Shown in pieces: positions 4,846-62,657 of a stretch of 64,000 nucleotides of DNA. The stretch spans positions 62,068,347 through 62,132,346 of the forward strand of contig VSWD01000008.1 in NCBI GenBank assembly GCA_033119305.1, read 5' to 3'. Source of the stretch: Pinctada imbricata. Its lineage: Eukaryota. Every line of letters begins with the position of its first letter. The stretch's first letter is position 1. The position numbers were made by a program, and so were the translations under genes. Under the pieces are notes generated by a model, which saw nothing but the letters and a program-made list of their open reading frames with translations, did not search any database and had not been told where the DNA came from.

Positions 4846-5905
4846 AATGTAGGTCAAAGTTCAAGGTCAATGTCATGATCTAAAATGAAAGGTCTTGTAA
4901 CCTTGTAACTCTTTTCATAAAAATCAAATTCAAGGAATTGTGATCCCCAACTTTTGGGCGTTTGTCTTTCAAGAAATGCTTACAGGGCCCCCCAACCCCC
5001 ACCCCTATTCTTAGGTTTTCATAATATATCTAATGTATTATAAAAATTCTATGTATTATAAAAATTCTATGTATTGTAAAAATTCTAAATATCAAAAGAA
5101 AAGGTCAAAACTTTTGTTACCAAGGGTAAGGTCTGGTGAAAAGGGATGTACATGTGAAATAGGAAAGTCCTATCATTTACCATCCAAAAGTTATGGTCAA
5201 GGTTGAAGATTTTAAATGAGTATCAACCTCCAAGGATGAGGTCACTAAGTCGGAATGTCTTGTCACAAGGAATACACATGCGAAATATGAAAGCTGAACC
5301 ACCAACCATTCAAAAGTTATGGTCAATGTTAAATTTTCTGAAAAGTAGGTCACACTCCAAGGTCAAGGTCACAAAGTCATAACTTTTGGTATCCATGGAA
5401 AGGTCTTGTCACAATGAATACAAATGTGAAATATGAAAGCCCTATCACATACCACTCAAAAGTTACAGGTCAAGGTTAAAGTTTCTGAAAAGTAGGTCAA
5501 ACTCCAAGTCAAGGTCACCAGGTCAAAACTTTAGTATCCATGGAAAGGTCTTGTCACAAGGAATAAACATGTGAAATATAAAAGCCCTATCACTTCTCAT
5601 TCAAACGTTATGGACAAGGTTTAAGTTTTTGAAAAGTAGGTCAATCTCCAAGGTCAAGGTCACAAGGTCAAAATTTTTGGTATCCATTGAAAGGTCGTGT
5701 GAGAAGGAATACACATGTGAAATATGAAAGCCCTATCACTTACCATTCAAAAGTTAAAGACAAGGTTAAAGTTTTTTTCTATTTTTTATATCACTTGATA
5801 TAACATGTATGAAGGTTATCAAGAACAAGGTTTAAGTTTTTCTTACTGACTGACAGACACACAGACAGACAGATGGACCAGTTTTAATGTCCCCGCGCTT
5901 TCGTG
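4846..5905 (+). repeat. Array of ~140-bp AAAGTAGGTCA satellite units (~7, some degenerate). It ends with (GACA)n and a variant 3' hairpin gtccccgcgctttcgtgaaaacaggggac. An embedded 19-bp triplication lies at 5040-5095
   Basis: Units read directly (ggtcaaggtca...ggaatacacatgtgaaatatgaaagccctatcac); terminal hairpin stem GTCCCC/GGGGAC. Confidence 0.6.
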
Positions 5906-6142
5906 AAAACAGGGGACAAAAAATATTCATGTAAAATATGAAAGCTATACTGCTTATGGTTTAACTTCAAGAGATACATGTATGGTCAACTTTAAGTTTT
6001 TGAAAAGTATGCAAAATTTCAAGGTCAAGGCCATTAGGTCAAAGGTCAAGGTTTCACATGAAAGGCCGTGTCATAAGAAATCTTCAAGAAGATTAGGAAT
6101 AACAAAGCTGTATCCATTACTGCTGAAAGATATAAACAATAA

Positions 6143-6718
6143 AATCTGTGTTTGTGAAACACGATCCCCCGTTGGCATCTTTGTCAGTAAAACAGATGAA
6201 AAGAAGTTCACATTTGAGGTCCAGGTCACAAGGTCAAATTTAGTATCCTTGGAAACATCTTGCCACATGGAATTCATATGTAAAATATGAAAGCCCTATC
6301 ACTTACCATTCAAAAGTTAAGGCTAAAGTTTAAATTTTCGAAATTAGGTCAAATTCCAAGGTCAACATCACAAGGTCAAAAATTTTGGTATCCATGGAAA
6401 GGTCTTTTAACAAGGAATACAAATGTGAAATATGAAAGCCCTATCACTTACATGTACCAGTACCATTCGAAAGTTATGCCCAAGGTTAAAGTTTTTCAAA
6501 AGTAGGTCAAACTCCTAGGTCAATGTCACAAGGTCAAAAATTTTGGTATCCATGGAAAGATCTTGTCACAAGGAATACAAATGTGAAATAGGAAAGCCCT
6601 TTCACTTACCATTCAAAAGTTATTACCAAGGTTAAAGTTTTTGCAGGACAAACAGACAGACAGACGGAAAGACCAAAAACTATATGCCCCCGAATCTTCG
6701 ATAACAGGGGCATAAAAA
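6143..6718 (+). mobile_element. Family F3 element: 5' tctgtgtttgtgaaacacgatcccccgttggcatctttgtcagt, 4 satellite units, (ACAGAC)n and 3' hairpin atgcccccgaatcttcgataacaggggcat
   Basis: Termini match the other F3 copies; the internal ~142-bp units carry AGGTCA direct repeats. Confidence 0.65.
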
Positions 6719-7959: not shown

Positions 7960-8540
7960 CCGGTAGTTGCAGGTATCGATTGTTCAGTACAAGCCATCTA
8001 TGAGCATTGCAACCCAACCATTACCCATAGACAACGAGGGCGTTTGTTTTTATCCTGTTTTTAATGAGAGCCTTCCCTGGCATGTTTTTAAACTCATGTG
8101 CGATAATGCCCCACAAGGAGCCCAGCACATTACCGGAAGAAGAAGAAGAAGAAGTTCTAAGACTGAGCTATTAGGATGTCCCTTTAGCTCACTCGGCAAT
8201 GAGTCTGAGACTCTGACTATCACGGCCAGGAATCGAGTCCCGGACCAGGCACCTGCAAACTACTTCATTAGCGATGAGGTGAAAAATTGGTGTGTGTGGG
8301 CCAGCTTGATCTGCAGGAGTGGAGGCAGAACCCTGCCAGGGGTTGGAGGGTGGCCACACAGCGGGGTACACCCACAGCCCTCAACAAAAGGGGGAAGGGT
8401 GTAGTGTTTTCAGGTAGTTGCAGGTACCGATATTTCAGTACAGGTACAAAGACTGAGCTATCGGGATTTCCCTTTAGCTCACTCAGCAACGAGTCTGACT
8501 ATCACCCGGACAGCCAGGGTTCGAGTCCTGAAAGTTACTT
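7960..8540 (+). repeat. Tandem duplication (~445-bp period) of a GC-richer unit with a tRNA-like A box (tagctcactcRgcaaYgagt) and B box (gGttcgagtcc). A candidate tRNA-derived SINE head
   Basis: The unit agactgagctatYRggat.tccctttagctcactc.gcaa.gagtctga...cgagtcc occurs at 8160-8250 and 8448-8530. Both copies are preceded by gtagttgcaggtaYcgat. Confidence 0.35.
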
Positions 8541-10181
8541 TGATTATTCTGTTTACATGATTCAAAATAAATTGTAAGGTGTCTGCGGGCTTTTTAAATT
8601 GTGCCCTGTTTGACGTCCACGATTCTTTAGCCCTCCTCTGATCAGAGGAAACTAGAACTATATTTATCTCACTCTAACGCTTACTGTCATTTTTGGAATG
8701 CCTGGCAGGTATGTATGTAATGATTATTTTAATAACGTTGGAATCACATCATTTAACGAAAAGAAAGTGTCAATTTTAATACATTGAGCCAGCCAGTTTG
8801 TTTATTTTTACCACTTCCGCTTTGGACAAGAGCAGACAACTCTATTTTTCTGCGAGGTTTTTTTTTTTGGGGGGGGTGTATGTGCTACAATAACTCAATT
8901 TCATTGAAATGAAATAAACGAAGATAGTGTAAAAGATCTCCAATGCTCATAGATGGTTCTTATCTTTATATTCATTAAAGCACTGATATGTCCCCCATCC
9001 CAAATAAAAATAAGTTTCTTTGGGAGGGAGGGGGGGCTTTTTATCCCATTTTTATATCTTTTTTTCGCTCGTCAGATTCATAAATTGTTGAAAGGAAATA
9101 TTCTGAATCTTGAACTCATTATATAAATGATAATCGGTCGGCTCTGTGTTGAACTTGACAGTAACAAAAATATCAACCCCCTCCCTCCATCGGAATAAAA
9201 TAATCGTCCCCGTGTTTAAATATTCAAGTTGACAACGCATATATTGTATAAAAACAAAGATATAAGAATTGAAAATCAAGGAAAGTCTTATGTAAATTTC
9301 TCTTCGTAACGTGCATACTCTTCCAATGTGTCACTGTTCACAACTTGAGTGAGAAAGTACAATCCAGGAACTCCGCTCTCCTTTTCCTTTTAATAGAAGA
9401 TACAAACTACATTTTTTAGGTTTACAAAGCGTAAACTTGTATAGTTTATTGTAACCTTGAGAACATACATCTCATTGGTACAGTACATGATAATTACATT
9501 AATCAATTGAATATACAAGTGAACGGGGACGAATACATCGTTCCCTTTCACACAATATAGAGGATGGTCAAGCATATAGAAATGGTGTATACAGCAATAT
9601 TTTCATACAAAACTTAAGAATGCAATTGCCTGTCTCTAAGAGTTTTACCCAGTATTTCAAAATTTTTTTTTTCTTTTTCTAACAATATGTAAATGCAATC
9701 TTCCCACTTATGATAACACAATTGACGTTCTCTTTTTAATATGCATATATACAAAGTTAGGTTTTTATTACTAATTAAATATTAATTACCTCTTTGTGGG
9801 AATAATCACCGATAAATTTTCTATTATCACGTGTTGTGTTTTCATATAATAAATAAACATGCGTCGCTTTGAATACATAATAAGAATATAATTGGATAAG
9901 ATTTAAATTAATGTGTTTTGACTTTACCCTATTCATTTAGAAATATTACTTCAAACCGGAGTATCAATATTAAACTTTTTCCCATATAAATAAGGGTCCT
10001 TCAAATCATTTCAATTCAGCATCGGCCTCTTAGTTCATATTATCTGGTCACATACCTTATATTGTTAAATATCACTCAAACCATATATTTTAGTTTAAAA
10101 TACTTAGATAAAGAAATAGAGAAGATAAAAAGTATACTGAAGATTTAATTTTTTCATAAGACTTCAAAATAAATTAAAGCT

Positions 10182-10656
10182 ATGTCTAAGATAAGTGAAC
10201 TGAAAGATCGTCTGAGAGAACAGGAAGCATATTACGCTTCCGCTTGTGTCCAGTTGTCCGCACTCAACATCCAGATGGAACAGCTGGCGAAGAGATTTGA
10301 AAGGGCTGAAGAAAAGGGACAAAAATCGTTCCGCTATTCTTTGCGCATGCGTATGGCTGTCTTGGAAGGAGTACGCAACATGTTCTATGAATTCGCCTCA
10401 CTCAAGGCCAACGTCATCAGCCGATTACGTCACGAAATTCTAATCGAACACGTCTTTTCTGAGGCTAATATGGCCGACTTGAATGACTCCTATCCCATAT
10501 TTGGAAGATACGGTTTGCCTCTCTTCATGGTAGGTAATAACAATGAAGACGAGGAAGAAGACGGAGAATTAGATGAAGAGGAGGAAGATGATTACTTGAC
10601 AGAAACAGACGAAGAATTGCCTAGAGAGCGGAGACGTGGAAATTACTACATCTTGA
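10182..10656 (+). CDS. Candidate first coding exon of an unidentified gene. The product is coiled-coil N-terminal (MSKISELKDRLREQEAYY...) with a poly-acidic stretch (NEDEEEDGELDEEEEDDY); the exon ends at a GA|GTGAGT donor at 10656
   Basis: 176-codon ORF in a locally GC-richer segment. Start context aaagctATGtct. Consensus donors at 10528 (G|GTAGGT) and 10656 (GTGAGT). No homologue recognised. Confidence 0.35.
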
Positions 10657-11618
10657 GTGAGTACTATTTGATTTTATATTCATTGCTCGAACTTGGTGTG
10701 TCAGATATTTAATGTAAAAAAAAATAGATTACAAGCGGAAGAAAGAAAAATCGGATTTCCAGAAAATTGTTAACAACTCAGCCATTATAATGGTTTCACA
10801 CATCTCCATTTCAGATTCTGCTTCACCATGATGTATACCAACAGTAGTAACTACCACACAAGGGAGTATACCATTCTATTTTAACAACAATGTGAGGGCT
10901 TGTCCCGTTGAAATGTTCTGACGGAAGAACCCATCATCCATTCATATTAATGTAAACCCCTTATCCGAGAAAAATGTTCTAGGAATATCCATCGAAAAAG
11001 TTATGCAATAAAAACAGAAAACCTCTTTCGAACGATATAAACAAGGGGGAGCGATGTACAAATCAACACAGGTATCAATTAAAAAAAAATATATATATCA
11101 AAAATTTACCATGGTTAACTTCAGTTTCAGATGCTCTTCTGACAACCATTATCCATCATCCAACGACAAAGGTCCTCAAAGAGAAGAGGAGTGTGCGACC
11201 GGTACCACATAAGAACTGAATGCTGTGTAATGGTTTCATTTTTATAAGACACTTCTTACGTTAAGATTGTGTTATGAGACGACAAGCCCAAGAGTCAACA
11301 TTGAAGTAAAATACATGAATACTGTGAGAATCTTACTAGTTTTGTTTATTCTGATCAAGCGTGAATAATTAAAGTTTTGTGAAAATATTTATTTGTTGAC
11401 AATCTTTTAATGGAAAATATGTCTGGAAGCTATAAATGCATGTACAAAGGTAAGAGGGTGATGCGAAATGAATACACATAAGTTTGTTTGAGAATGTGAT
11501 CGCATTTGCACTTTAAATGTTGGAATACACGAAACATTTGCTATTTCAAATCCTGTAATGAACAACAGCAAGGCAAAGATTTCGAACGAAAATTGTCACG
11601 CTGCTCAAGTATAATTTT

Positions 11619-12157: not shown

Positions 12158-13020
12158 CTAGAGTTTTGCAAAACAAAGAGGCTCTCAAAATTAGCATGAT
12201 GATTATATGTGCGTTTCATATCACACCGGATTAACATCGTTTGAAATTCTTATACCAGATGAAAGTTTAAATCAAGTCTACGGGAAGAGTTATAACATGT
12301 ACCGTTCATTTCCTGGGAAAATGTTGCGAAAGATCACCCTTTATATTCTATTATGCAAATTGGTCAATTTGAAAGTTTTCAGCATAAATTATTTTTATTA
12401 ACAAAAAAATTAAGTTTTAGTTTACAAATATGTCTTCAGGAGATGCAATCTACTATTAATTAATTAAAATTTAACTCTATGCTAAGCTAAGAGAATATTA
12501 ATTCACCTCATGTTTCTGGTTTAGAAAACAACAAAACAAAACAAACATCAAACAGTCAAAAGAAAGAACTTATAAGTTCGCATTCTATATACATGTAATT
12601 TGTCGAAAAGCATATGAACCCCTTGAGTGAATCGTCTAGATCGCCTTTTATATCGCCATGACAAAACTCGAGACATGTGAATATGAAATAGACAATTACC
12701 AAGAAGTATGTGGTACCTAATCCAGCTTACTAGTACTATATCTCTATCTTTCCAGGTTATTTCCACAGGAGCTCGATGCCAACAACCCTCAATGACACCC
12801 CCTTTCCCATCTCTCTCTAGTCAAAGTTATATAAGGAAAAGTAGGGCGGATATTCTTGTGGATCATTGGCATCGAGCTCCTGAGACTATTTCAAATAAAG
12901 AGGAACTTTACAGTTTCTGGATCAGAACGCTCGATAAATACAGGAAGGAGCATAACTGATGGTACATGGTTTGTTGAAATGCGCAAATACATGTATGATG
13001 CACTATAAAATTTGTAATCT

Positions 13021-14270
13021 TTTGGTATCTGTGATAAAACTTTATCTCGGTGTTACTCGTACTTGCAAGATAGATCACAATGTGTGATGTGGAAAGGTGT
13101 TCTATCTGAGCAAAGAGAGGTTTCTATTGGAGTCCCGCAGGGCTCGATTTTAGGGCCTTTGTTTTTCATTTTATTTGTTAACGACTACCCCAATGTCTTC
13201 AACTCTTCCGTTACAATATATGCTGACGACACCACACAAGGTGTCACTGACAAATCATTAGATGTTATAGAATGTAAGTTAAAAGAAGATTTATTAAACA
13301 GTGTGAAATGGATGAGGGATAACAAACTTACAATGAATCTAAAGAAAACACAATGTCTTTTAATTGGAACATCACAGAAATTGTTAAAATGTAGAGAGTT
13401 ATGTGTTAAAGTTGGAGAAACTGTGATAGAAAATGTGAAATGTGCAAAACTTTTAGGTGTTTATATTGATGAATGTCTTACTTGGTCCTATCATACAGAT
13501 GTTTTATACAAGAAATTAAGCCAACAAATAGGTGTTTTAAAGAGGCTAAGTACTTTTATGTCCAAAACGGCATTACTCAGAATGTATAATTCTATAGTTT
13601 TTCCACATTTTAATTATTGTTGTACTGTGTGGCATAATGCAAAGAACAAGACACACATAGAAAAGCTTTTTAGATTGCAGAAGAGGGCAGCAAGAATCAT
13701 TTTAGATATAAAAATACCTAGGTCTGTGTCAACATCTAGTTTGTTTGAACATCTTAAATGGATGCCTCTGTCTGATTACTTTATTTATAGAGAGTCTATT
13801 CTTGTTTTTAAAGTTTTACATGGGCTCACACCTGAATATTTGAATGTTTTTAGCTTTGTAAATGAAATACATACAAGAAACACAAGACAGAGAGCAGTAA
13901 ATCTTATTTATGTCAAGAGAGCAAGAACAGAATATTTTAGAAGATCTTTTATCATTTCGGGTGCATCTTTATGGAACTCTTTGCCTGATTTTATTAGAAA
14001 CTCTACAACATTGTCATCTTTTAAAAACGGGTATCTGAAGCATTACTTTGACTCCTAAATTATTACATGGATATTGATGTTGTTTTACAGGTATGTATTT
14101 TTGTAAATGAACTGTGATATTTAGGTTTTATTTCATTAAGGTGATACAATGGACTTAATTTACTTAATATGTACATATTTTTAAGACAGGACCACATTGT
14201 AAACTAGTTCATTTTATAGCTAGATGTGCTATCCTGTATAAATAAAGGAAACAATTAAAAAAATAATAAT
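13021..14270 (+). mobile_element. 5'-truncated non-LTR retrotransposon (LINE), CR1/L2-like. It carries the RT C-terminal half plus the downstream conserved domain, a 3' UTR and an A-rich tail (aataaaggaaacaattaaaaaaataataat)
   Basis: RT motifs GVPQGSILGPLFF and YADDT. Downstream LRMYNSIVFPHFNYCCTVW...LQKRAARII is typical of CR1/L2/Jockey-group elements. Upstream frames are broken. Confidence 0.7.
13063..14058 (+). CDS. Reverse transcriptase ORF fragment (331 aa) of the LINE above
   Basis: Supplied ORF; the PQG..LGP and YADD boxes are read in the translation. Confidence 0.75.
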   Translation: MQDRSQCVMWKGVLSEQREVSIGVPQGSILGPLFFILFVNDYPNVFNSSVTIYADDTTQGVTDKSLDVIECKLKEDLLNSVKWMRDNKLTMNLKKTQCLLIGTSQKLLKCRELCVKVGETVIENVKCAKLLGVYIDECLTWSYHTDVLYKKLSQQIGVLKRLSTFMSKTALLRMYNSIVFPHFNYCCTVWHNAKNKTHIEKLFRLQKRAARIILDIKIPRSVSTSSLFEHLKWMPLSDYFIYRESILVFKVLHGLTPEYLNVFSFVNEIHTRNTRQRAVNLIYVKRARTEYFRRSFIISGASLWNSLPDFIRNSTTLSSFKNGYLKHYFDS

Positions 14271-17710: not shown

Positions 17711-18531
17711 GTAATCAAAGATGACAGCGCTTACCTCGAAGGCATCATTGTCCCATGACCAGCATCTATACCTACATTGCACAAAGTATTTCCAGATGCA
17801 TCATCCACATAAGTTTGGTTGATAAAAAATTCAAAGAAGGCTGGAAATGAAGATTCTAATTTTACCATACCTGGCAAATCAAGTGTGAAATATTGGTCAG
17901 ATGCAGCATCTGTACAGTGCATTGCAGTAAGCATCCTCAGATACATCACCAACACAAGTTTTTTTTTATTGATCTAGGATTTAAAATAGGCTGGAAATGG
18001 ACCTGTCCCATTTTACTTAACCTGATTGCTCAAGCATGGAATGTGGACAAGTGCAGCATCTGTACCATGAATTGCATTAAGCATCCTCAGATGCATCATC
18101 AATGCAAATTTGGTTGATGTACTCGACTTATAGTAAGACTGGAATGGACCTGCCCCATTTTACCTAACCTGCTCACTCAAGCATGAAATGTAGGTCAGAT
18201 GCAGCCTCTGTACCACGCAGTGTTATAAGCATCCTCAGATGCATCATCCATGCAAGTTTGGTTGATGTAGGACTTATAGTAAGGCTGGAATGGACCTGTC
18301 AACTTTTACCTACCCTGCTCTCTCAAACATGAAATGTAGGTCAGATGCAGCCTCCGTACCATGCTTTGTTGTAAGCACCCTCAGATACATCATTCATGCA
18401 AGTTTGGTTGATGTAGGACCTATAGTTTGGCGGGAATGGACCTGTCCCGTTTTGCTTAACCTATGTTGCAGATGCCGACGACAGGCGATAGCATAAGCCT
18501 CCCTCTACTTTGCGAGGTGAGCTAAAATTAT
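17711..18531 (+). mobile_element. Family F1 element: 5' gtaatcaaagatgacagcgcttacctcg, ~6 copies of a 124-bp satellite (17760-18470), a short GACGAC microsatellite, a 3' hairpin and gagctaaaattat
   Basis: Termini match the element at 241-1684. The satellite is related to satellite B (aaatgtaggtcagatgcagc...catgcaagtttggttgatgtag). Confidence 0.65.
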
Positions 18532-19648: not shown

Positions 19649-19762
19649 TTACTTCCTGTAACCAGTCGGCCTGTTATATTCCACTTGCTTTTGTAAATCA
19701 TCTATACGAAGGTCCTTTAAGTGTAGCAAATGTTCCAATCTGTTCACTTTGGCTTCTAAAAT
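19649..19762 (-). CDS. SPEF1: SPEF1-like gene B, downstream alternative terminal exon: ILEAKVNRLEHLLHLKDLRIDDLQKQVEYNRPTGYRK*. It follows an atttcag acceptor
   Basis: 38 codons. Matches the human SPEF1 C-terminal coiled coil (..QMKVRRLEHLLQLKNVRIEDLSRRLQ.., from memory). Tandem paralogue of 19891-20004. Confidence 0.55.
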   Translation of the reverse strand: MLEAKVNRLEHLLHLKDLRIDDLQKQVEYNRPTGYRK

Positions 19763-19890
19763 CTGAAATTATAAGCAAGGAAAACTTCTGTTTATCTTGA
19801 TTATCGCACCTTTCCTAATAGATCCTAACAATACAGAACTTTATGTCAGAAGTGCTGTAGGAATTTTGTCTAGTTAGCACAAACACTATT

Positions 19891-20004
19891 CTAACGTCGA
19901 AATCCCGTTGGTCGCATTTCTTCGACACGATTTTGTAGATCGTCTATCCTCATGTCTTTAAGATGAATAAGGTGCTCCAGTCGGTTACATTTTGCTTGTA
20001 AAAT
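19891..20004 (-). CDS. SPEF1: SPEF1-like gene B, upstream alternative terminal exon: ILQAKCNRLEHLIHLKDMRIDDLQNRVEEMRPTGFRR*. It follows a ctttcag acceptor
   Basis: 38 codons. In phase with exon 22011-21885 (..DETIK|ILQAKC..). Confidence 0.6.
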   Translation of the reverse strand: MLQAKCNRLEHLIHLKDMRIDDLQNRVEEMRPTGFRR

Positions 20005-21884: not shown

Positions 21885-22011
21885 TTTGATTGTTTCATCT
21901 TTTGCAAGGTTTTCCTGAGCTTTTTCCTCGAACACTAATCTGGGTACGACATCGGCCTCCATGGGATCTCTGATGGTTCTACCTTTGGTAGGCTCCTGCC
22001 ATAACTCCGGT
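21885..22011 (-). CDS. SPEF1: SPEF1-like gene B internal exon: (R)PELWQEPTKGRTIRDPMEADVVPRLVFEEKAQENLAKDETIK. Acceptor ttttattacttcag; donor AAA|GTATGT
   Basis: Both splice sites are consensus. Aligns to the human SPEF1 pre-coiled-coil segment DPSFVLQIAEKEQELLASQETVQ (memory). Phase 0 exit matches the terminal exons. Confidence 0.6.
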
Positions 22012-24193: not shown

Positions 24194-26191
24194 GGGTACC
24201 TGTAAAGTGCGAAACGAAACAAAAACGAAACGAAACGAAACGAAACAAATCGAAACAAATTGAAACGAAACGAAACGAAACGAAACAGATCGAAACGAAA
24301 CAAAACAGATCGAAACGAAACGAAACAGATCGAAACGAAACAAAACAAAACATAAAACTTAAAGAAAATGAGAAAAAGAGGAAAAATCGCCGAAAACGAA
24401 TATTTCAAGACAAGATCTTATTGAAGGGTCAGGGGGTACCACTCTCCTCCTGCCGCCTCCCCCCTCCCCGTGGGGGGAGGGGGTCTTGGGCGGTCAAGAC
24501 AAATGTTTAAACTTTAAAGTGTAAATTGGTGCAATAGTGAAGTTATTTGGGTTATTTCCTTTTTTAAACCTTGAATAAAGCCTGTGTTTGTGAAACACGA
24601 ATGCCCCCGGTGGCATCTTTGTTAGTATAAACGCCATTTTCTGTTAAGTACGTGAAAAGTCAAAGTCAAGGTGACGAGGACAAAACCTTTTGCTAACAAT
24701 GAAATGGTCTTCTCACAAGGAATACACATGTGAAATATGAAAGCCCTATCACTTACTATTCAAAAGTTATGCCCAATGTTAAAGTTTTTGAAAAGTAGGT
24801 CAAAGGTCAAGGTCAGGGGGTTAAAACTTTTGGTATCAATGGAAAGGTCTTGTCACAAGGAATACACATGTGAAATATGAAAGCCCTATCACTTACCATT
24901 CAAAAGTTATGCCCAATGTTAAAGTTTTTGAAAAGTAGGTCAAAGGTCAAGGTCAAGGTCACAAGGTCAAAAATTTTGGTATCAATGGAAAGGTCTTGTC
25001 ACAAGGAATACACATGTGAAATGTGAAAGCCCTAACATTTACCATTCAAAAGTTATGCCCAATGTTAAAGTTTTTAGTTCGGACAAACAGACAGACAGAC
25101 AAACAGACGGACAGGCCAAAAACTATATGCCCCCGAATCTGTGATTCCGAGGGCATAAAAAAGAAATAGACCTGTTTAGATGAAAAACTAAGGTGAGCGG
25201 AGCGAGCCTGAAGTATTTGAAAAATGAATTGAAAATTGTGGCGAGCGAAGCGATCGGGAAAAAATTTTAAGGTATATATAGATGAATTTCGTGGTAATTT
25301 TTAGAATTGAGATTATGTACATGAACGCATAAGAGCAAGATTATTTATATTAAGAGTAATTTTCTAATTTTTTTGGGTTACTGTTACCCTCCCAATCATC
25401 TGTCCCTCCTCTCGCCCCCTTTCCTCTCCTCCCGCCCCCTTTCTCTCCCCTCCCTTTGTCCCTGTCCACCCCCTCATTATTGCCTTCAACCGTTAGTTCT
25501 TGTGGCTGGAGGGTTTTTTAAAGAATCAAAGTTGACGATTAAAACATAATATATACGGTATATAGCACAATTGCATTTTAAAGGAGAGTGATTGGGATGA
25601 ATAACCTCGTCACAGACGGAAAAATATTATTTAGCAGGGAGGAGTCTAGCGCAGAGGAAACGGAACTGTTCCGTTATGTGTATTTGAAAATTTTATCAGA
25701 AAAATGAGAACAATTAAAAACTGGGGGGCAGATTTCGTTTAAAAAGGATAAGATTTTTTCCTGAAATATGCCCCCACCCCGTTTTATGATCTCATTACGG
25801 TGTCATAGCGTGGTTTTCTATCCCCTCCCTTTTATTCCACTTAAATACATGAATGGCATTTGACATTTACTTTTTTTAATTGTCAACTTTGACTCTTTCA
25901 AGAAACCCTCTCTGCACTAGTTACAAATGTAGAACTCTTGGATTAAGGCAATATTACATGCTGCTCTTGTCTTGAAATATTCGTTTTCGGCGATTTTTCC
26001 TCTTTTTCTCATTTTCTTTAAATTTTATGTTTTGTTTCGTTTCGTTTCGATCTGTTTCGTTTCGTTTTGTTTCGTTTCGATCTGTTTCGTTTTGTTTCAA
26101 TTTGTTTCGTTTCGTTTCGATTTGTTTCGTTTCGTTTCGATTTGTTTCGTTTCGTTTCGTTTTTGTTTCGTTTCGCACTTTACAGGGACCC
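24194..26191. mobile_element. Non-autonomous DNA transposon with ~235-bp terminal inverted repeats (GGGTMCCTGTAAAGTGCGAAAC...; each contains a (GAAAC/GTTTC)n array) and a perfect 9-bp TSD, TTCTTTATC. MULE/Merlin-like by TSD length. It carries a nested F3 element
   Basis: TSD at 24185-24193 and 26192-26200. Arm 24194-24425 is the reverse complement of 25965-26191 at ~95% identity. No ORF. Confidence 0.6.
24581..25162 (+). mobile_element. Family F3 element nested inside the long-TIR element
   Basis: 5' cctgtgtttgtgaaacacgaatgcccccggtggcatctttgttagt, 3 units, (ACAGAC)n, 3' atgcccccgaatctgtgattccgagggcat. Confidence 0.65.
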
Positions 26192-30819: not shown

Positions 30820-33800
30820 CTCCCCCCTCCCTCTAAGTTACTTTGACCTTAGGCCAAAATGCAAAATGATGTGAAACCTTTGAGTCATGGGCAACATCAT
30901 ACTAAAACATGAAAGTAATTCATTACATTGTTTGAGGTAAAGCCCAAACATGATTGGCATATATAATTTCATTATAAGCATATTTAAAGAAATTGACTTT
31001 GGTCACATGACCTTGGATATAGGTGATCTGAAATCTACACTCACTGACGAAGATTAAGTACCCGAAACATGCATGTCTGGTCCATGCTGAAAACTTATCT
31101 GTTTTTAAATGATGCTATTGAATTTGAAGACGTTTAGCATTGTATGGATCATGAGCATCAAAAAACTGAATTAGTGATTGGATACACAGTTCAAAATATA
31201 AAGCCTAAACGTTATTAGCATAGACAATTTCAGCCTGGACATGCTTAGCATATACAATTTCATTACCAAAGTAAGAAGCTACCTTAACCATGTGACCTTG
31301 GGACAATGTGATAAGAAACATTCAGTCCTTAGAAATAACATACTAAAATATGAAAACAATTGTAAGAAGGGTTCAGGAGATATAGCCCAGACAATATTAG
31401 TACGTACAATTTCATTAAAAAGAACTAAATGATCTTGACCTTGGGCACATGACCTTGGGTCAAGATGATAAGAAACCCTCCAATCCTGAGCAACAGCATA
31501 CTATAGTATAAGAGTGATCCAGTATACGATTCCACAGATATAGCCCAGACTCAATAGCATTTACAATTTCATTAAAAAATGTAATACTTGACCTTAGTCA
31601 TATGACCTTGGATCAAGAAGGTGTGAAACCTTTGGGTCATCAGCACCATCATACTAAAATATGACGTGATCTGATCACGGTTCAAAAGATTAAGCCTGGA
31701 CATAATACATGTAACAAATACAATTTCATTTAAAATATACTAATTGACCTTGACTTTGGTCACATGACCTTGAGTCAATGTGATGTGAAACCTTTACGTG
31801 ATAAGCAACAACATACTAAAATATGACGGTGATCTGATAAATAGTTCAAAGAGATACAGCCCCAATGGGATAGCATATACAATTTCATTTAAATGTACTT
31901 AGTAACTTTGACCTTAATCAAATGACCATGGGTCCAGGTGAAACCTTTTGGTCATGACTAAATACATTCTTAAACTTGAAAGCAATCCAGTATGCAGTCC
32001 AAGGGATAAAGCCTAAACAAGAATGTATCTACAATTTCATTAAAAATGTAGTAAGTGACCTTGGCCTTGGGTCAAGGTGATGTAAAACCTTCCGGTCATA
32101 AGCAAAAACATACTTAAATATGAAAGTGATCCGGCAAACGGTTCAAGAGATATAGCCCGGACAAGAATGTATGCACAATATCATTAAAAATAGCAATCCA
32201 AGGAATGCTCGTGTCGCCTGCGAAGCGGCTTGATTATTATTCTAGAAAGTGGATCAAAATTATTGGTAACAGTAGAAAAGTTTTGTCAAATGAAATTCAT
32301 TTGAAATATCAGACCTCATAATTACAAATTAAAAGATATGGTCATTCTCAAATTTTCAGAAAATAGTGTCAATCATCTAGGCAAAAGTCACTATGTAAAA
32401 ATTTGTAACGAAAAGGTCTCATCATAAGAAATATCAAAGACCTATCACTTACCAATTAAAAAATATACACAACCTTAATTTCTTAGAAAAGAAGGTCAAA
32501 CAGTTAGGTCAAGGTCAAACATTATGGTATGTGTAGAAATGCATTGTTACGAGGAAAATACATGTGAAATAGCAAAGCCCTATCACCTACCAATCAAAAG
32601 ATATAGCCAATTTGAATTCTCTTGAAAAGTAGGTCAAATATCTAGGTCAAGATCACAAGGTTAAATATTATGGTCTGTGTAGAAAGGTCATGTCACAAGG
32701 AATACACATGTGAAATATCAAAGCCCTATCACTTACATGTACCAATCAAAAGATATATACAATCTTAATACTTTTGAAAAGTGGGTCAAATATGTAGGTC
32801 AAGGTAAATAGGTCAGAAATTATGGTATGTGTAGAAAGGCGTTGTTACAAGGAATAAACATGTAAAATATCAAAGCCCTATCACTTACCATTAAAAAGAT
32901 ATAGTGAATCTTATCTTTTTTTCAAAAGTAGGTCAAATATCTAGGTCAAGGTCACAAGGTCAAAAATTATGGTGTGTGTAGAAAGGTCTTGCCACAAGGA
33001 TTGCATGTGTGAAATATCAAAGTCCTAACCCTTACCAATCAAAAGATATATCAATTCTTAACTTTTTTGAAAAGTAGGTCAAATATGTAGGTCAAGGTCA
33101 CTAGGTCAAAAGTTATGGCATGTGTAGAAAGGTCTTGTCACAAGGAATACACATGTGAAATATCAAAGCCCTATCACTTACCTTTCAAAAGTTATGGGCT
33201 GTGACACCCAAAGTGTGACAGACAGATGGACTGACTGACGGACGGACGGACAACGGACAAAGTGATCCCTAAGTGTCGCTATGCTTCGCAGGAGACACAA
33301 AAATGCACTAAGTGACCTTGACCTTGGTCACATGACCTTGGGTCAAGGTGATGTGAAACCTACGGGTCATAAGCAACAACATGCTAAAATATGAAAGTGA
33401 TCGGGCCAACGTTTCCAGAGATATAGCTTGACAGGAATGTATTCATAATTTCATTAAAAATGCACTAAGTGACCTTGACCTTGGTCACATGACCTTGGGT
33501 CATGGTGATGTGAAACATTTGGGTCATAAGCAACAACATACTAAAATATGAAAGTGATCGGGCGAACGGTTCAAGGGATATGGCACAGACTGGAAAGTAT
33601 GCACAGTTTCATTAAAAATGCACTAAGTGACCTTGACCTTGGTCACATGACCTTGGGTCAAGGTGATGTGAAACCTTCGGGTCATAAGCAACAACATACT
33701 AAAATATGAAAGTGATCCGGCATTCGTTCAAGAGATATAGCCCGGACAGGAATGTATACATAATTTCATTAAAAATGCACTAAGTGACCTTGACCTTGGT

Positions 33801-34605: not shown

Positions 34606-36100
34606 CAGTGTTTGTGAAACACAAATGCCCCCGGTGGCATCTTTGTTAGTATGAACACTAATTTCTGTTAAGTACATGTATGTGAGGTCACTGGGTTAAA
34701 AGGTCAAAGGTCAAGGTCACGAGGTCAAAAATTTTGGTATCAATATAAAGGTCTTGTCACAAGGAATACACATGTGAAATATGAAAGCCCTATCACTTCC
34801 CATTCAAAAGTTATGCCCAATGTTAAAGTTTTTGAAAAGTAGGTCAAAGTCCAAGGTCAAGGTCACAAGGTCAAAAATTTCGGTTTCCATGGAAAGGTCT
34901 TGTCACAAGGAATACACATGTGAAATATCAAAGCCCTATCACTTTCCATTCAAAAGTTATGGTCAAGGTTAAAGTTTTTAATAAGTAGGTCAAAGGTCAA
35001 GGTCAAGGTCACGAGGTCAAAAATTTTGGTATCAATGGAAAGGACTTGTCACAAGGAATACACATGTGAAATATGAAAGCCCTATCACTTCCCATCCAAA
35101 AGTTATGTCCAATGTTAAAGTTTTTGAAAAGTAGGTCAAAGGTCAAGGTCAAGGTCACGAAGTGAAAAATTTTGGTATCAATGGAAAGGTCTTGTCACAA
35201 GGAATACACATGTGAAATATGAAAGCCCTATCACTTCCCATCCAAAAGTTATGCCCAATGTTAAAGTTTTTGAAAAGTAGGTCAAAGGTCAAGGTCAAGG
35301 TCACGAGGTCAAAAATTTTGGTATCAATGGAAAGGTCTTGTCACAAGGAATACACATGTGAAATATGAAAGCCCTATCACTTCCCATTCAAAAGTTATGT
35401 CCAATGTTAAAGTTTTTGAAAAAGTAGGTCAAAGGTCAAGGTCACGAGGTCAAAAATTTTGGTATCAATGGAAAGGTCTTGTCACAAGGAATACACATGT
35501 GAAATATGAAAGCCCTATCACTTCCCATTCAAAAGTTATGCCCAATGTTAAAGTTTCTGAAAAGTAGGTCAAAGGTCAAGGTCAAGGTCACGAGGTCAAA
35601 AATTTTGGTATCAATGGAAAGGTCTTGTCACAAGGAATACACATGTGAAATATGAAAGCCCTATCATTTCCCATTCAAAAGTTATGCCCAATGTTAAAGT
35701 TTTTGAAAAGTAGGTCAAAGGTCAAGGTCAAGGTCACGAGGTCAAAAATTTTGAAATCAATGGAAAGGTCTTATCACAAGGAATACACATGTGAAATATG
35801 AAAGCCCTATCACTTCCCATCCAAAAAATATGCCCAATGTTAAAGTTTTTGAAAAGTAGGTCAAAGGTCAAGGTCAAGGTCACGAGGTCAAAAATTTTGG
35901 TATCAATGGAAAGGTCTTGTCACAAGGAATACCCATGTGAAATATGAAAGCCCTATCACTTCCCATTCAAAAGTTATGTCCAATGTTAAAGTTTTTCGGA
36001 CAAACAGACAGACAAACAGACAAACAGATAAACAGACAAACAGACGGACAGGCCAAAAACTATATGCCCCCGAATCTTTGATTCCGGGGGCATAAAAAAA
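34606..36100 (+). mobile_element. Family F3 element: ~10 x 142-bp units, a long (ACAGAC)n and the 3' hairpin atgcccccgaatctttgattccgggggcat
   Basis: Termini and units read directly. A partial duplicate of the 5' terminus (gttgtgaaacac) lies 25 bp upstream. Confidence 0.7.
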
Positions 36101-43317: not shown

Positions 43318-44190
43318 ACAAAAATAGCAATTCAAGGAATGCTTGTGTCACCTGCGAAGTGGCAATTTCTTCTTTTTTTTTTTTTAAAGTAGGTCAAATA
43401 TCTATTTCAAGGTCATTAGGTAAAAAATTATGGCATGTGTAGAAAGGTCTTGTCACAAAGCATACACATGTGAAATATCAAAGCCTTATCATTTACCAAT
43501 CTAAAGACATAGCTAATCTTAGTTTTTCAAGAAGTAAGCCAAATATCTAGGTCAAGGTCACTAGGTCAAACATTATGGTAAGTGTAGAAAGACCTTGTTA
43601 CAAGGCATACACATGTGAAATATCAAGGCCTTATCCCTTACCATTCAAAAGATAAAACCAATCTTAGCTTTTTTTAAAAGTAGGTCAAATATCTAGGTCA
43701 AGGTCACTAAGTCCAAAAAAAAATTGTAGGTGTAGAAAGGTCTTGTCACAAGGAATACACATGTGAAATATCAAAGCCCTATTCCTTACCATTCAAAAGA
43801 TAAAACCAATCTTAGCTTTTTTGAAAAGTAGGTCAAATATCTAGGTCAAGGTCACTAATTCCAAAAAAAAAAAAAAAATGGTAGGTGTAGAAAGGTCTTG
43901 TCACAAGGAATACACATGTGAAATATCAAAGCCCTATCACTTACCAATTAAAAGATATACAAGTAGTCAATCTTAGCTTTTTTGAAAAGTAGGTCAAGGT
44001 CACTAGGTCAAAAATGTTGGTTTGTGTAGAAATGTCTTGTCACAAGGAATAAGCATGTGAAATATCAAAGCCCTATCACTTACCAATCTAAAGTTATGGG
44101 GTGTGACACCCAAAGTGTGACAACAGACGGACAACGGACAATGAGATCCCTAAGTGTTGCTATGATTTGCAGGCTACACAAAAAGACAGC
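43318..44190 (+). mobile_element. Family F2 element (~6 units; poly-A slippage inside the units)
   Basis: 5' aaaaatagcaattcaaggaatgcttgtgtcacctgcgaagtggc; 3' aaagttatggggtgtgacacccaaagtgtgacaacagacggacaa...gcaggctacacaaaaa. Confidence 0.65.
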
Positions 44191-49860: not shown

Positions 49861-49914
49861 TGTGTTTGTGAAAAACAAATGCCCCCGTCGGCATCTATGT
49901 CAAATTGTATAATG

Positions 49915-49946
<32 letters not shown>

Positions 49947-50409
49947 ATATTTTGGTATCAATGGAAAGGTCTTGTCACAATGAATACACATGTGAAATAT
50001 CAAAGCCCTATCCCTTACCATTCAAAAGTTATGGCCAAGGTTAAAGTTTTTCAAAAGTAGGTCAAACTCTAAGGTCAAGGTAACAAATTTTGGTATCCAT
50101 GGAAAAATCTTGTCACAAGGAATACACATGTGAAATATCAAAGCCCTATCCCTTACCATTCAAAAGCTATAGCCTGCAAGGTTAAAGTTTTTCAAAAGTA
50201 GGTCAAACTCTAAGGTCAAGGTAACAAGGTTAAAAATTTTGGTATCCATGGAAAGATCTTGTCACAAGGAATAAACATGTGAAATATCAAAGCCCTATCT
50301 CTTAAATTTGTACCATTCAAAAGCTATGGCCAAGGTTAAAGTTTTTGCAGACAAACAGACAGGACAAATACTATATGTCCCCGAATCTTTGATTACCGGG
50401 GCATAAAAA
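49861..50409 (+). mobile_element. Family F3 element (3 units)
   Basis: 5' tgtgtttgtgaaaaacaaatgcccccgtcggcatc; 3' (ACAGAC)n...atatgtccccgaatctttgattaccggggcat. Confidence 0.65.
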
Positions 50410-55638: not shown

Positions 55639-56109
55639 TCTGTGTTTGTGAAACACGAATGCCCCCGTTGGCATCTTTGTCAGTAAAACAGATGAAAAGT
55701 AGTTTCACATTTGAGGTCAAGGTCACAAGGTCAAATTTAGTATTCATGGAAAAGTATTGCCACATGGAATTCATATGTGAAATATGAACGCCCTATATAT
55801 CACTTACCATTCAAAAGTTATGGCTAATGTTTAAATTTTCGACACCGTATTAGGTCAAACTCCAAGGTCAAAAATTTTGGTATCCATGGAAAGGTCTTGT
55901 CACAAGGAATACACATGTGAAGTATGAAAGCCCTATCACTTACCATTCAAAAGTTATGCCCAAGGTGAAAGATTTTCAAAAGTAGGTCAAACTCTAAGGT
56001 CAAGGTAACAAATTTTGGTATCTAAGGAAAGGTCTTGTCACAAGAAATGTGAAATATGAAAGCCCTATCCTTCACCATTTAAAAGTTACGCCCAATGTTA
56101 AAGTTTTTC

Positions 56110-56142
<33 letters not shown>

Positions 56143-56316
56143 ATGTCAAAAATTTTGGTATCCATGGAAAGGTCTTATCACAAGGAATACACATGTGAAA
56201 TATGAAAGCCCTATCACTTACCGTTCAAAAGTTATGGCCAAGGTTAAAGATTTTGCAGACAAACAGACAGACAGACCAAAAAGTATATGCCCGAATCTTT
56301 GATTACGGGGGCATAA
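55639..56316 (+). mobile_element. Family F3 element (4-5 units)
   Basis: 5' tctgtgtttgtgaaacacgaatgcccccgttggcatc; 3' (ACAGAC)n..tatatgcccgaatctttgattacgggggcat. Confidence 0.65.
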
Positions 56317-60640: not shown

Positions 60641-60968
60641 CTATAAATGACAGGAAAGGAAACAAGATCAAGAATCAATGAGAGTACACAAATCGGCTAA
60701 CTAGTAATGTTCAATTGATATTTCACATATAAGTGATTCACTATGTTCCCTCTAAGATTCTTCAGTTGAATATCACTTGAACAAAGTGAGCTCGCCAGGA
60801 GCTGCGAAATACGTTTCAAAAACTAAACCACTATAGGGAAAGATCGATAGCTTGAACCGTGGTTTAATCCGTCCTTCTCCAAAGGCAAGTAGCTTTCGTA
60901 AACTAATAGTACGACTTCTATATCTGAGATACGTTTTCTTTTTATTTCGGTCAGTACATTTGATCCCA

Positions 60969-61109
60969 CTAGTATCTAATAAAACGTTGTTTTCGTGGTC
61001 CTACATAGTAAAGACCATGTTCGCGCGCTAATTGTTCTTGAAGATCAACAAGTCTGTTGTCCTTAAGTTGCAATAACTGCTCGAGACGTCGAATTTTCGC
61101 ATTTAGCAT
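60969..61109 (-). CDS. SPEF1-like paralogue C, upstream alternative terminal exon: MLNAKIRRLEQLLQLKDNRLVDLQEQLAREHGLYYVGPRKQRFIRY*. Acceptor tttgtag
   Basis: 47 codons; in phase with exon 62657-62525. Confidence 0.55.
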   Translation of the reverse strand: MLNAKIRRLEQLLQLKDNRLVDLQEQLAREHGLYYVGPRKQRFIRY

Positions 61110-62524: not shown

Positions 62525-62657
62525 CCTTATAGTATCGTCCTTGGCCATGCACTCCATCTGTTTTTCTTCCAGGTAACTTCTTGGCACATTGTCTATATGA
62601 GGGTAGATGTACAGTGGTGGATTTTCTAAGTAGTTCTTCCCATCAAAATGGTACGAT
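62525..62657 (-). CDS. SPEF1-like paralogue C penultimate exon: (.)SYHFDGKNYLENPPLYIYPHIDNVPRSYLEEKQMECMAKDDTIR. Acceptor gattttgcag; donor AGG|GTAAGTAAC
   Basis: Consensus splice sites on both sides. Paralogous to 21885-22011 and 12006-12157. Confidence 0.55.

Follow-up and report, generated by a model that had tools for sequence, protein, structure and literature searches.

Gene B and its two terminal exons

The DNA analyzed here, referred to as the window, is a stretch of 64,000 nucleotides (nt) from Pinctada imbricata (contig VSWD01000008.1, positions 62,068,347 to 62,132,346 of the forward strand). On its minus strand lies gene B, by its sequence a SPEF1/CLAMP-like gene, which carries two homologous copies of its last coding exon, named a and b. 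A protein database search with gene B returned as best match KAK3094411.1 (P0001), described as 'hypothetical protein FSP39_001445 [Pinctada imbricata]', in a set of about 100 molluscan 'sperm flagellar protein 1-like' entries. The following exons and signals were assigned to the gene:

52105-51964, minus strand: exon 1 (e1)
44372-44261, minus strand: first copy of exon 2 (e2a), 112 nt
40602-40491, minus strand: second copy of exon 2 (e2b), 112 nt, the copy in the deposited model
34479-34271, minus strand: exon 3 (e3)
29173-29119, minus strand: micro-exon
21885-22011, minus strand: penultimate exon, 127 nt, ending in ..PELWQEPTKGRTIRDPMEADVVPRLVFEEKAQENLAKDETIK, acidic N-terminal half of the coiled coil
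19891-20004, minus strand: terminal exon a, 114 nt including the stop codon, encoding ILQAKCNRLEHLIHLKDMRIDDLQNRVEEMRPTGFRR
19763-19890, minus strand: spacer of 128 nt from the stop of a to the acceptor of b, its 3' end formed by the pyrimidine tract and AG of b
19649-19762, minus strand: terminal exon b, 114 nt including the stop codon, encoding ILEAKVNRLEHLLHLKDLRIDDLQKQVEYNRPTGYRK, candidate alternative C-terminus
17965-17970, minus strand: AATAAA, the first canonical one 3' of both terminal exons and a candidate shared polyadenylation (poly(A)) signal, found by pattern scan only

Joining e1, e2b, e3, the micro-exon, the penultimate exon and exon a yields the exact translation of KAK3094411.1. 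Models ending in a or in b are each 252 amino acids long and keep the reading frame. In the isoform composed of e1, e2a, e3, the micro-exon, the penultimate exon and b, the CH_2 domain (PF06294) was detected at residues 24-118 with E=1.3e-30 and 105.7 bits (cut-off 27), and P0001 carries a precomputed PF06294 annotation. Furthermore, the peptide encoded by the penultimate exon and b aligns to PDB entry 9ijx, 'Sperm flagellar protein 1', with E=8.8e-11. Both results agree with the initial annotation of this DNA, which had described a and b as paralogous exons that provide a SPEF1-like protein with alternative coiled-coil C-termini. The peptides of a and b share 27 of 37 residues (73%), and in tblastn searches each of them matched the C-termini of oyster SPEF1 proteins with E values of about 1e-11 to 1e-14; a chance resemblance is far from sufficient to explain this.

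The two terminal exons were found where the initial annotation had placed them, with the same translations, their own stop codons and polypyrimidine acceptors. The distance of 240 base pairs given there holds as a start-to-start distance, which is 242 nt, but not as the gap between the exons, since the acceptor of b follows the stop of a after 128 nt. The penultimate exon ends with ...AKDETIK in phase 0 at the donor AAA/GTATGT (the slash marks the exon boundary), so that the open frame continues into a or b; the donor at 21885 suits both exons, as had been proposed from the shared frame after ..KDETIK. At the sequence level, both acceptors consist of a pyrimidine-rich tract followed by tttcag, and the tracts, judged from the sequence, contain 14 pyrimidines in 18 positions for b and 13 in 18 for a. 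Directly after the stop of a there is no donor, the sequence being aatagtgt. The sole donor-like site noted in the spacer, AAG/GTGCGA, was found by eye and not by a systematic scan, and it lies about 37 nt from the acceptor of b. A distance of about 37 nt is too short for an intron.

Exon 2, which lies in the CH domain, is duplicated as well. Its copies e2a and e2b have the same phase and good splice sites, and inclusion of both or of neither would shift the frame; hence, e2a and e2b must be mutually exclusive. The same exon-2 pair is present in two oyster genes (genes 1 and 2, see below), and both versions are seen in products, namely in P0007 versus P0009 and in the Ostrea isoforms X8 versus X9.

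Both terminal exons evolve as coding sequence

Exons a and b differ at 43 of 111 nt, with 14, 5 and 24 differences at the first, second and third codon positions, respectively. Only 10 of the 37 residues are changed, while 18 codons carry nothing but synonymous differences. When 43 substitutions were placed at random on exon a, none of 200,000 trials was as conservative without introducing a stop codon. The proportion of synonymous differences (pS) is about 0.97 and hence saturated, that of nonsynonymous differences (pN) about 0.19, giving a pN/pS of 0.20. Saturated synonymous sites together with a low pN point to an old duplication and to a peptide that was constrained along the whole path between the copies.

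A HMMER search with the 37 residues of b against 1.84 billion representative proteins revealed a second species with this arrangement. The best match, P0159, is an open reading frame (ORF) of 49 residues that reads ...LQ/ILEAKINRLEHLTHLKDIRIESLQNDVEANRPTGVGYRK and originates from a 28.6-kilobase (kb) contig of the ENA assembly ERZ26168041 (locus L005). The organism behind L005 is, as far as its sequence tells, distant from Pinctada. The locus contains the following exons:

8487-8613: penultimate exon, ending in ...EADTVPRIMFEEKAQECLAKDETIK, donor GTACGT
9766-9894: a-type exon, encoding ILQAKVNRMEHLIHLKDVRIDDLQQRVESLRPTGGFQQIKRH followed by a stop codon
10031-10150: b-type exon, encoding ILEAKINRLEHLTHLKDIRIESLQNDVEANRPTGVGYRK followed by a stop codon, 136 nt beyond the a-type exon

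The order penultimate exon, a and b is thus the same as in the Pinctada window, and the tight spacing between a and b is kept. Stop codons are present in both terminal exons, and the AG acceptors are conserved as tttcag and ttgcag. Between Pinctada and L005, the a exons are identical at 72 of 102 nt, with 19 of the 30 differences at third positions (pN/pS 0.16). The b exons are identical at 75 of 102 nt, and their 27 differences are distributed 9/3/15 over the codon positions and change 8 residues (pN/pS 0.23); none of 50,000 random trials was as conservative. Orthology of the two b exons is supported by the nucleotide distances and by a common NRPTG..YRK tail.

Global alignment of Pinctada and L005 gave z values above shuffled sequences of 13.4 for exon a and 15.2 for exon b. 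The corresponding values were 1.3 for the 100 nt upstream of a, 2.6 for the spacer, which is marginally alignable, and 0.3 for the 100 nt downstream of b. In blastn comparisons of this region, only the penultimate exon, the block of a, spacer and b, and a block at 12089-12006 were collinear. By these alignments, exon b is a conserved coding island in otherwise saturated DNA and is kept as well as a. The initial annotation had named neutral substitution in the second copy as a finding that would refute it, and such a pattern is clearly excluded by the codon-position bias between the copies, by the random-mutation test and by the conservation of b in L005. Exon b is, on this comparative evidence, not a relic, and a and b are both maintained by selection in two distant species.

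These data bear on the view that exon b is a dead duplicate, that is, 3' untranslated region (3'UTR) or intergenic DNA with no more than a residual resemblance to an exon. The deposited model with its exclusive use of a would fit this, as would the lack of any b-containing product in the databases searched and the lack of a canonical poly(A) signal between a and b, which would place b in the 3'UTR of a-transcripts. However, the peptides of a and b are still 73% identical although synonymous sites between them are saturated, and in L005 b is kept as strongly as a, with third-position bias, with frame, stop region and AG intact, and with flanks that cannot be aligned. We therefore regard a dead duplicate as very unlikely. 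Conservation of b as an element acting at the RNA level, such as a regulatory 3'UTR sequence or a structure controlling splicing, would likewise be compatible with a position in the 3'UTR of a-transcripts, provided that these transcripts are polyadenylated at about 17970. Here, the three-base periodicity (9/3/15 between species and 14/5/24 between copies) and the preservation of the open frame, of the stop position and of the chemistry of the coiled-coil core residues speak for coding sequence, and make an RNA element extremely improbable.

Predicted splicing choice and use of exon b

We consider it likely that exon b is a genuine alternative coding end of gene B, whose last coding exon was duplicated with both copies being kept. 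Probably, the SPEF1-like protein comes in two forms with different ends of the dimer-forming helix. We infer that b is spliced onto the penultimate exon, and likewise the regulation of the choice and its biochemical consequence. The tandem duplication of the last coding exon is old, and both copies were retained as coding sequence; according to our proposal, the donor at 21885 can be joined to either acceptor, at 20004 or at 19762. If the acceptor of a is chosen, translation would stop in a, and b would remain as untranslated 3'UTR or be lost by cleavage at a weak poly(A) site that precedes it. If the acceptor of b is chosen, a would be removed together with the intron. The products would have equal lengths and be identical up to the last 37 residues, which comprise the RPTG tail and, before it, the basic C-terminal half of the coil. 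The likely outcome would be two isoforms that differ in dimer stability, pairing preference or condensate behavior.

Of poly(A) signals, the stretch between the stop of a and exon b in Pinctada contains just the weak variants CATAAA and GATAAA, whereas AATAAA and ATTAAA are absent. Since a canonical poly(A) signal is missing between the two exons, the arrangement looks more like a competition of two 3' splice sites. Transcripts ending in a may carry b in their 3'UTR, and a and b would not necessarily be two independent terminal exons. In L005, an AATAAA at 9879-9884 overlaps the end of the a frame, and in gene C, a paralogue in the same window, an AATAAA at 60941-60946 lies just after the stop of the first terminal copy. 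It is possible that the choice of exon is coupled to the choice of poly(A) site, and this coupling may differ between loci.

Exon b could also be coding but belong to another transcript, with a different upstream exon, an internal promoter, or as a unit with a module at 12089-11619. The 3' region is complex indeed, as this third, divergent exon pair about 8 kb downstream is conserved in L005. However, b starts in phase 0 like a and only 128 nt after it, the nearest upstream phase-0 donor is that of the penultimate exon of gene B, and the interval from 22011 to 19649 yielded no further SPEF1-like exon. The tight spacing of a and b is also kept in L005. Membership of b in another transcript hence appears quite unlikely, and we retain exon b as an alternative end of gene B.

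Several observations weigh against the use of b as a coding end. KAK3094411.1 is the only deposited Pinctada model, and it uses exon a. We found no transcript, no contig of the expressed-sequence-tag kind and no predicted protein that contains b, neither in Pinctada nor in other species, which is a weak negative. The searches behind it are weak negatives, too: the peptide of penultimate exon and b returned only a-type sequences or sequences of other species, the full-gene protein search returned a single Pinctada entry, which is of a-type, and P0001 as well as several isoforms from oysters and mussels, looked up by exact match, were not on record. No Pinctada protein derived from RNA appeared in any search. 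In addition, a word-indexed search with a 65-residue query missed P0001 despite 28 exactly matching residues, and negatives obtained with short queries are accordingly weak. One protein that shared a 90% cluster, P0196 (430 amino acids), was discarded as an unrelated enzyme that was grouped by artefact.

Oyster genes add to these counterpoints. The Magallana gigas locus L001 contains three SPEF1-like genes. Gene 2 has one terminal exon, and no b-like exon was found in the following 7.6 kb. Gene 1 is the closer relative of gene B by its N-terminal sequence and likely its orthologue; in a Crassostrea-type transcript of gene 1, there was no b-like segment in 940 nt of 3'UTR. For oyster gene 1, this statement covers the transcript, as L001 ends inside the gene and L008 comprises 1 kb. 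In a further species (L006/L007, P0161), one terminal exon is present within 10 kb. The initial annotation had left it to orthologous species to decide between one and two terminal exons, and the answer is divided: two are present in L005, one in the oyster B-like sequence sampled and in L006. The a-b pair is, by the sequences compared, common to Pinctada and the L005 organism but not general to bivalves, and is thus lineage-restricted.

Constraint on b was measured over long branches. This leaves room for a scenario in which b was functional for a long time but was silenced recently in the Pinctada lineage, or is used there at trace level only, because a comparative signal that integrates long branches cannot date a recent loss; the lack of transcript support for b would fit as well. 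On the other hand, Pinctada b contains no premature stop, frameshift or acceptor lesion, and its pyrimidine tract (14/18) is as good as that of a (13/18). We consider recent silencing or use at trace level only unlikely.

Exons a and b differ within the coiled coil

The structure 9ijx (69 residues, six chains) matches the crystal form described in bioRxiv 10.1101/2025.07.31.667833, where the coiled coil of mouse Spef1 forms a parallel dimer, with L201, V205, L208, L212, I219, L222 and L226 among its core residues. K204, R207, K215 and R218 form a basic patch, and E186, E188, E190 and E196 lie in an acidic N-terminal half. Ciliary function of Spef1 needs dimerization, and the charge pattern tunes phase separation (bioRxiv 10.1101/2025.07.31.667833). 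In the alignment to 9ijx, residue n of the terminal exon corresponds to mouse residue 199+n. The core residues therefore fall on exon positions 2, 6, 9, 13, 20, 23 and 27, and the basic residues on positions 5, 8, 16 and 19. This mapping assigns the acidic half of the coil to the penultimate exon and the basic half to the terminal exon. The human SPEF1 sequence used for our first exon map is offset by 2 relative to the mouse numbering of the paper; the residue mapping given here rests on the 9ijx alignment and not on that sequence.

Exons a and b alike keep L2, L9, I20, L23 and V27 of the core as well as the basic residues K5, R8, K16 and R19. Core position 6 differs, with C in a and V in b, and so does core position 13: oysters and the a exons of the two species share Ile there, while the b exons carry Leu in Pinctada and Thr in L005. 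A third difference concerns the d position that follows, position 30, with Met or Leu in a-type exons and Asn in the b exons of Pinctada and L005. By general coiled-coil rules, these core differences would be expected to change pairing preference or stability. More speculatively, the two coil halves might act as a pairing code, in which Asn at a d position and the changed position 13 favor a-a and b-b over mixed dimers and alter the charge pattern for condensation. Together with the exclusive exon-2 pair this could yield a small matrix of microtubule-bundling proteins, which could suit the cilia of gill, larvae and sperm in pteriomorph bivalves, and the 3' module 8 kb downstream might add another end. 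We regard this idea as tentative and on balance doubtful.

Gene C and the order of duplications

Gene C, the remainder of which lies beyond the end of the window, shows a comparable 3' end:

62525-62657, minus strand: penultimate exon of gene C, ending in ..DNVPRSYLEEKQMECMAKDDTIR, phase 0 donor AGG/GTAAGT
60969-61109, minus strand: first terminal copy (Ca), encoding MLNAKIRRLEQLLQLKDNRLVDLQEQLAREHGLYYVGPRKQRFIRY followed by a stop codon
60506-60640, minus strand: second terminal copy (Cb), encoding MLNSKIRRLEHLLHLKDTRINDLQHQMAREQGMLSLVSRRHYLR followed by a stop codon

The two-copy arrangement that the initial annotation had reported for gene C is indeed present, at 61109-60969 and 60640-60506. 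The differences between Ca and Cb are distributed 7/2/19 over the codon positions; since random trials never reached this degree of conservation, coding constraint is indicated for this pair, too. The oyster C-type gene (L001 23731-26111) contains three intact tandem terminal exons on the minus strand, at 24694, 24237 and 23865, with ttttgtag acceptors and a stop of their own each. In the Logan transcripts P0111 and P0112, ...KDETIR is joined directly to the most distal terminal exon, with the two upstream acceptors being skipped. These junctions show that upstream acceptors of terminal type do get skipped in the SPEF1-like family. The tail types LYYV.. and ML.L..RRHYL of the oyster C-type exons also occur in the copies of Pinctada gene C, in another order.

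In a neighbor-joining analysis the C-type exons grouped together with 57% bootstrap support, while a grouping of Ba with Ca or of Bb with Cb was obtained in 0 of 300 replicates; Pinctada b and L005 b were grouped weakly (30%). This exon tree is based on 34 columns and is weak. The initial annotation had dated the exon duplication before the gene duplication. Our data do not support this order, as the exons group by gene and as the oyster B-like genes show one terminal exon in the sequence sampled and the C-type gene three. Independent duplications within each gene would fit better and would be more economical, because the single-copy state is found in two oyster B-like genes.

Comparison with known duplicated exons

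Tandem duplication of homologous exons that are alternatively spliced is a known process (Kondrashov and Koonin, 2001; Letunic, Copley and Bork, 2002; Abascal et al., 2015; all cited in PMC9882654). Exons a and b resemble such pairs in being adjacent, homologous, 114 nt long each, of the same phase and equipped with their own acceptors, as well as in purifying selection as coding sequence and in conservation across species. They differ in being terminal with their own stops, so that one donor faces two acceptors, whereas the classic pair is internal and flanked by shared exons. Consequently, exclusivity of a and b would come from the stop codon and the terminal position, and not from frame incompatibility or from steric or RNA-structure mechanisms.

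Among named cases of alternative last coding exons, KRAS with its exons 4A and 4B comes closest. These are also tandem homologous 3' coding exons with a stop each, yield isoforms that differ in a short functional C-terminus, and have kept their arrangement over long times (PMC9882654). For 4A, an origin from an NRAS exon inserted by exon shuffling was proposed (PMC9882654), whereas the copies in gene B appear to have arisen by local tandem duplication. As an internal cassette, exon 4A is spliced on to 4B, while exon a lacks a donor directly after its stop. Furthermore, gene B exchanges half of a dimerizing coiled coil and not a membrane-targeting tail. In KRAS, the downstream exon is untranslated when the upstream exon is used, as predicted for b.

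With SPEF1/CLAMP, a microtubule-bundling protein of the ciliary central pair, gene B shares the N-terminal CH_2 domain and the C-terminal parallel dimeric coiled coil. To our knowledge, vertebrate SPEF1 has been described with a single coiled-coil end. In bivalves, by contrast, the SPEF1 family has grown into tandem paralogues that each contain duplicated exons. The oyster C-type paralogue resembles gene B in its tandem intact terminal coiled-coil exons, with transcripts that skip upstream copies; it differs in being another paralogue, whose tail is of the ARE(Q/H)G type and not RPTG, in having three copies and in a duplication that is apparently independent. We found no paper in the searchable literature that mentions SPEF1 together with mutually exclusive exons, and none there that links Pinctada SPEF1 to splicing. 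The a/b pair is an ordinary outcome of tandem exon duplication, a kind that is known, and a real, probably functional pair of alternative terminal exons.

The coiled coil of SPEF1 dimerizes and drives the phase separation on which assembly of the ciliary central pair depends (bioRxiv 10.1101/2025.07.31.667833). Natural variants of the basic half of the coil that are maintained side by side, as a and b are, would provide a ready-made experiment on which residues may vary and which may not. The pair further suggests splicing, next to gene duplication, as a means by which bivalves tune microtubule bundling. With respect to annotation, an isoform appears to be missing from the deposited Pinctada model, and gene predictors can overlook duplicated terminal exons that lie in an apparent 3'UTR.

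Surroundings of the locus

Downstream of exon b, at a distance of about 8 kb, the window contains the divergent exon pair mentioned above:

12089-12006, minus strand: divergent penultimate-like block, donor GAG/GTCAGT, corresponding to L005 16101-16184
11711-11619, minus strand: divergent terminal-like exon, encoding ALEAKVRRLDHLSLVKDLKINYMTSSTKVK followed by a stop codon, corresponding to L005 18226-18348

The splice signals of this module recur in L005, its pN/pS is 0.36 for the block and 0.57 for the terminal-like exon, and the penultimate-like block has 73% nucleotide identity with L005. CH-domain exons that would belong to the module were not found. It may belong to gene B as a third alternative 3' end, or form the tail of a different paralogue. 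The terminal-like exon at 11711-11619 had been considered as a decayed pseudo-exon control; this use was dropped, since the exon and its penultimate-like partner are conserved with their splice sites in L005.

An ORF of 179 codons at 10173-10709 on the plus strand, beginning with IKAMSKISELKDRLREQEAYY..., has a coiled-coil-like composition and no Pfam match, and is possibly an exon of an unrelated plus-strand gene. Another plus-strand ORF, of 346 codons at 13018-14055, matches reverse transcriptases (RVT_1, E=2e-11); as its similarity suggests, it is probably a retroelement fragment that lies between the end of gene B and the downstream SPEF1-like module. Finally, a repeat family with a unit of about 146 base pairs forms a tandem array in the intron at about 34700-36000. 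Scattered copies lie near 5300-6600, 24650-25100, 32400-33200, 43400-44100, 49900-50300 and 55700-56250, and the repeat is also found in L005 (7267-7601) with 65-78% identity.

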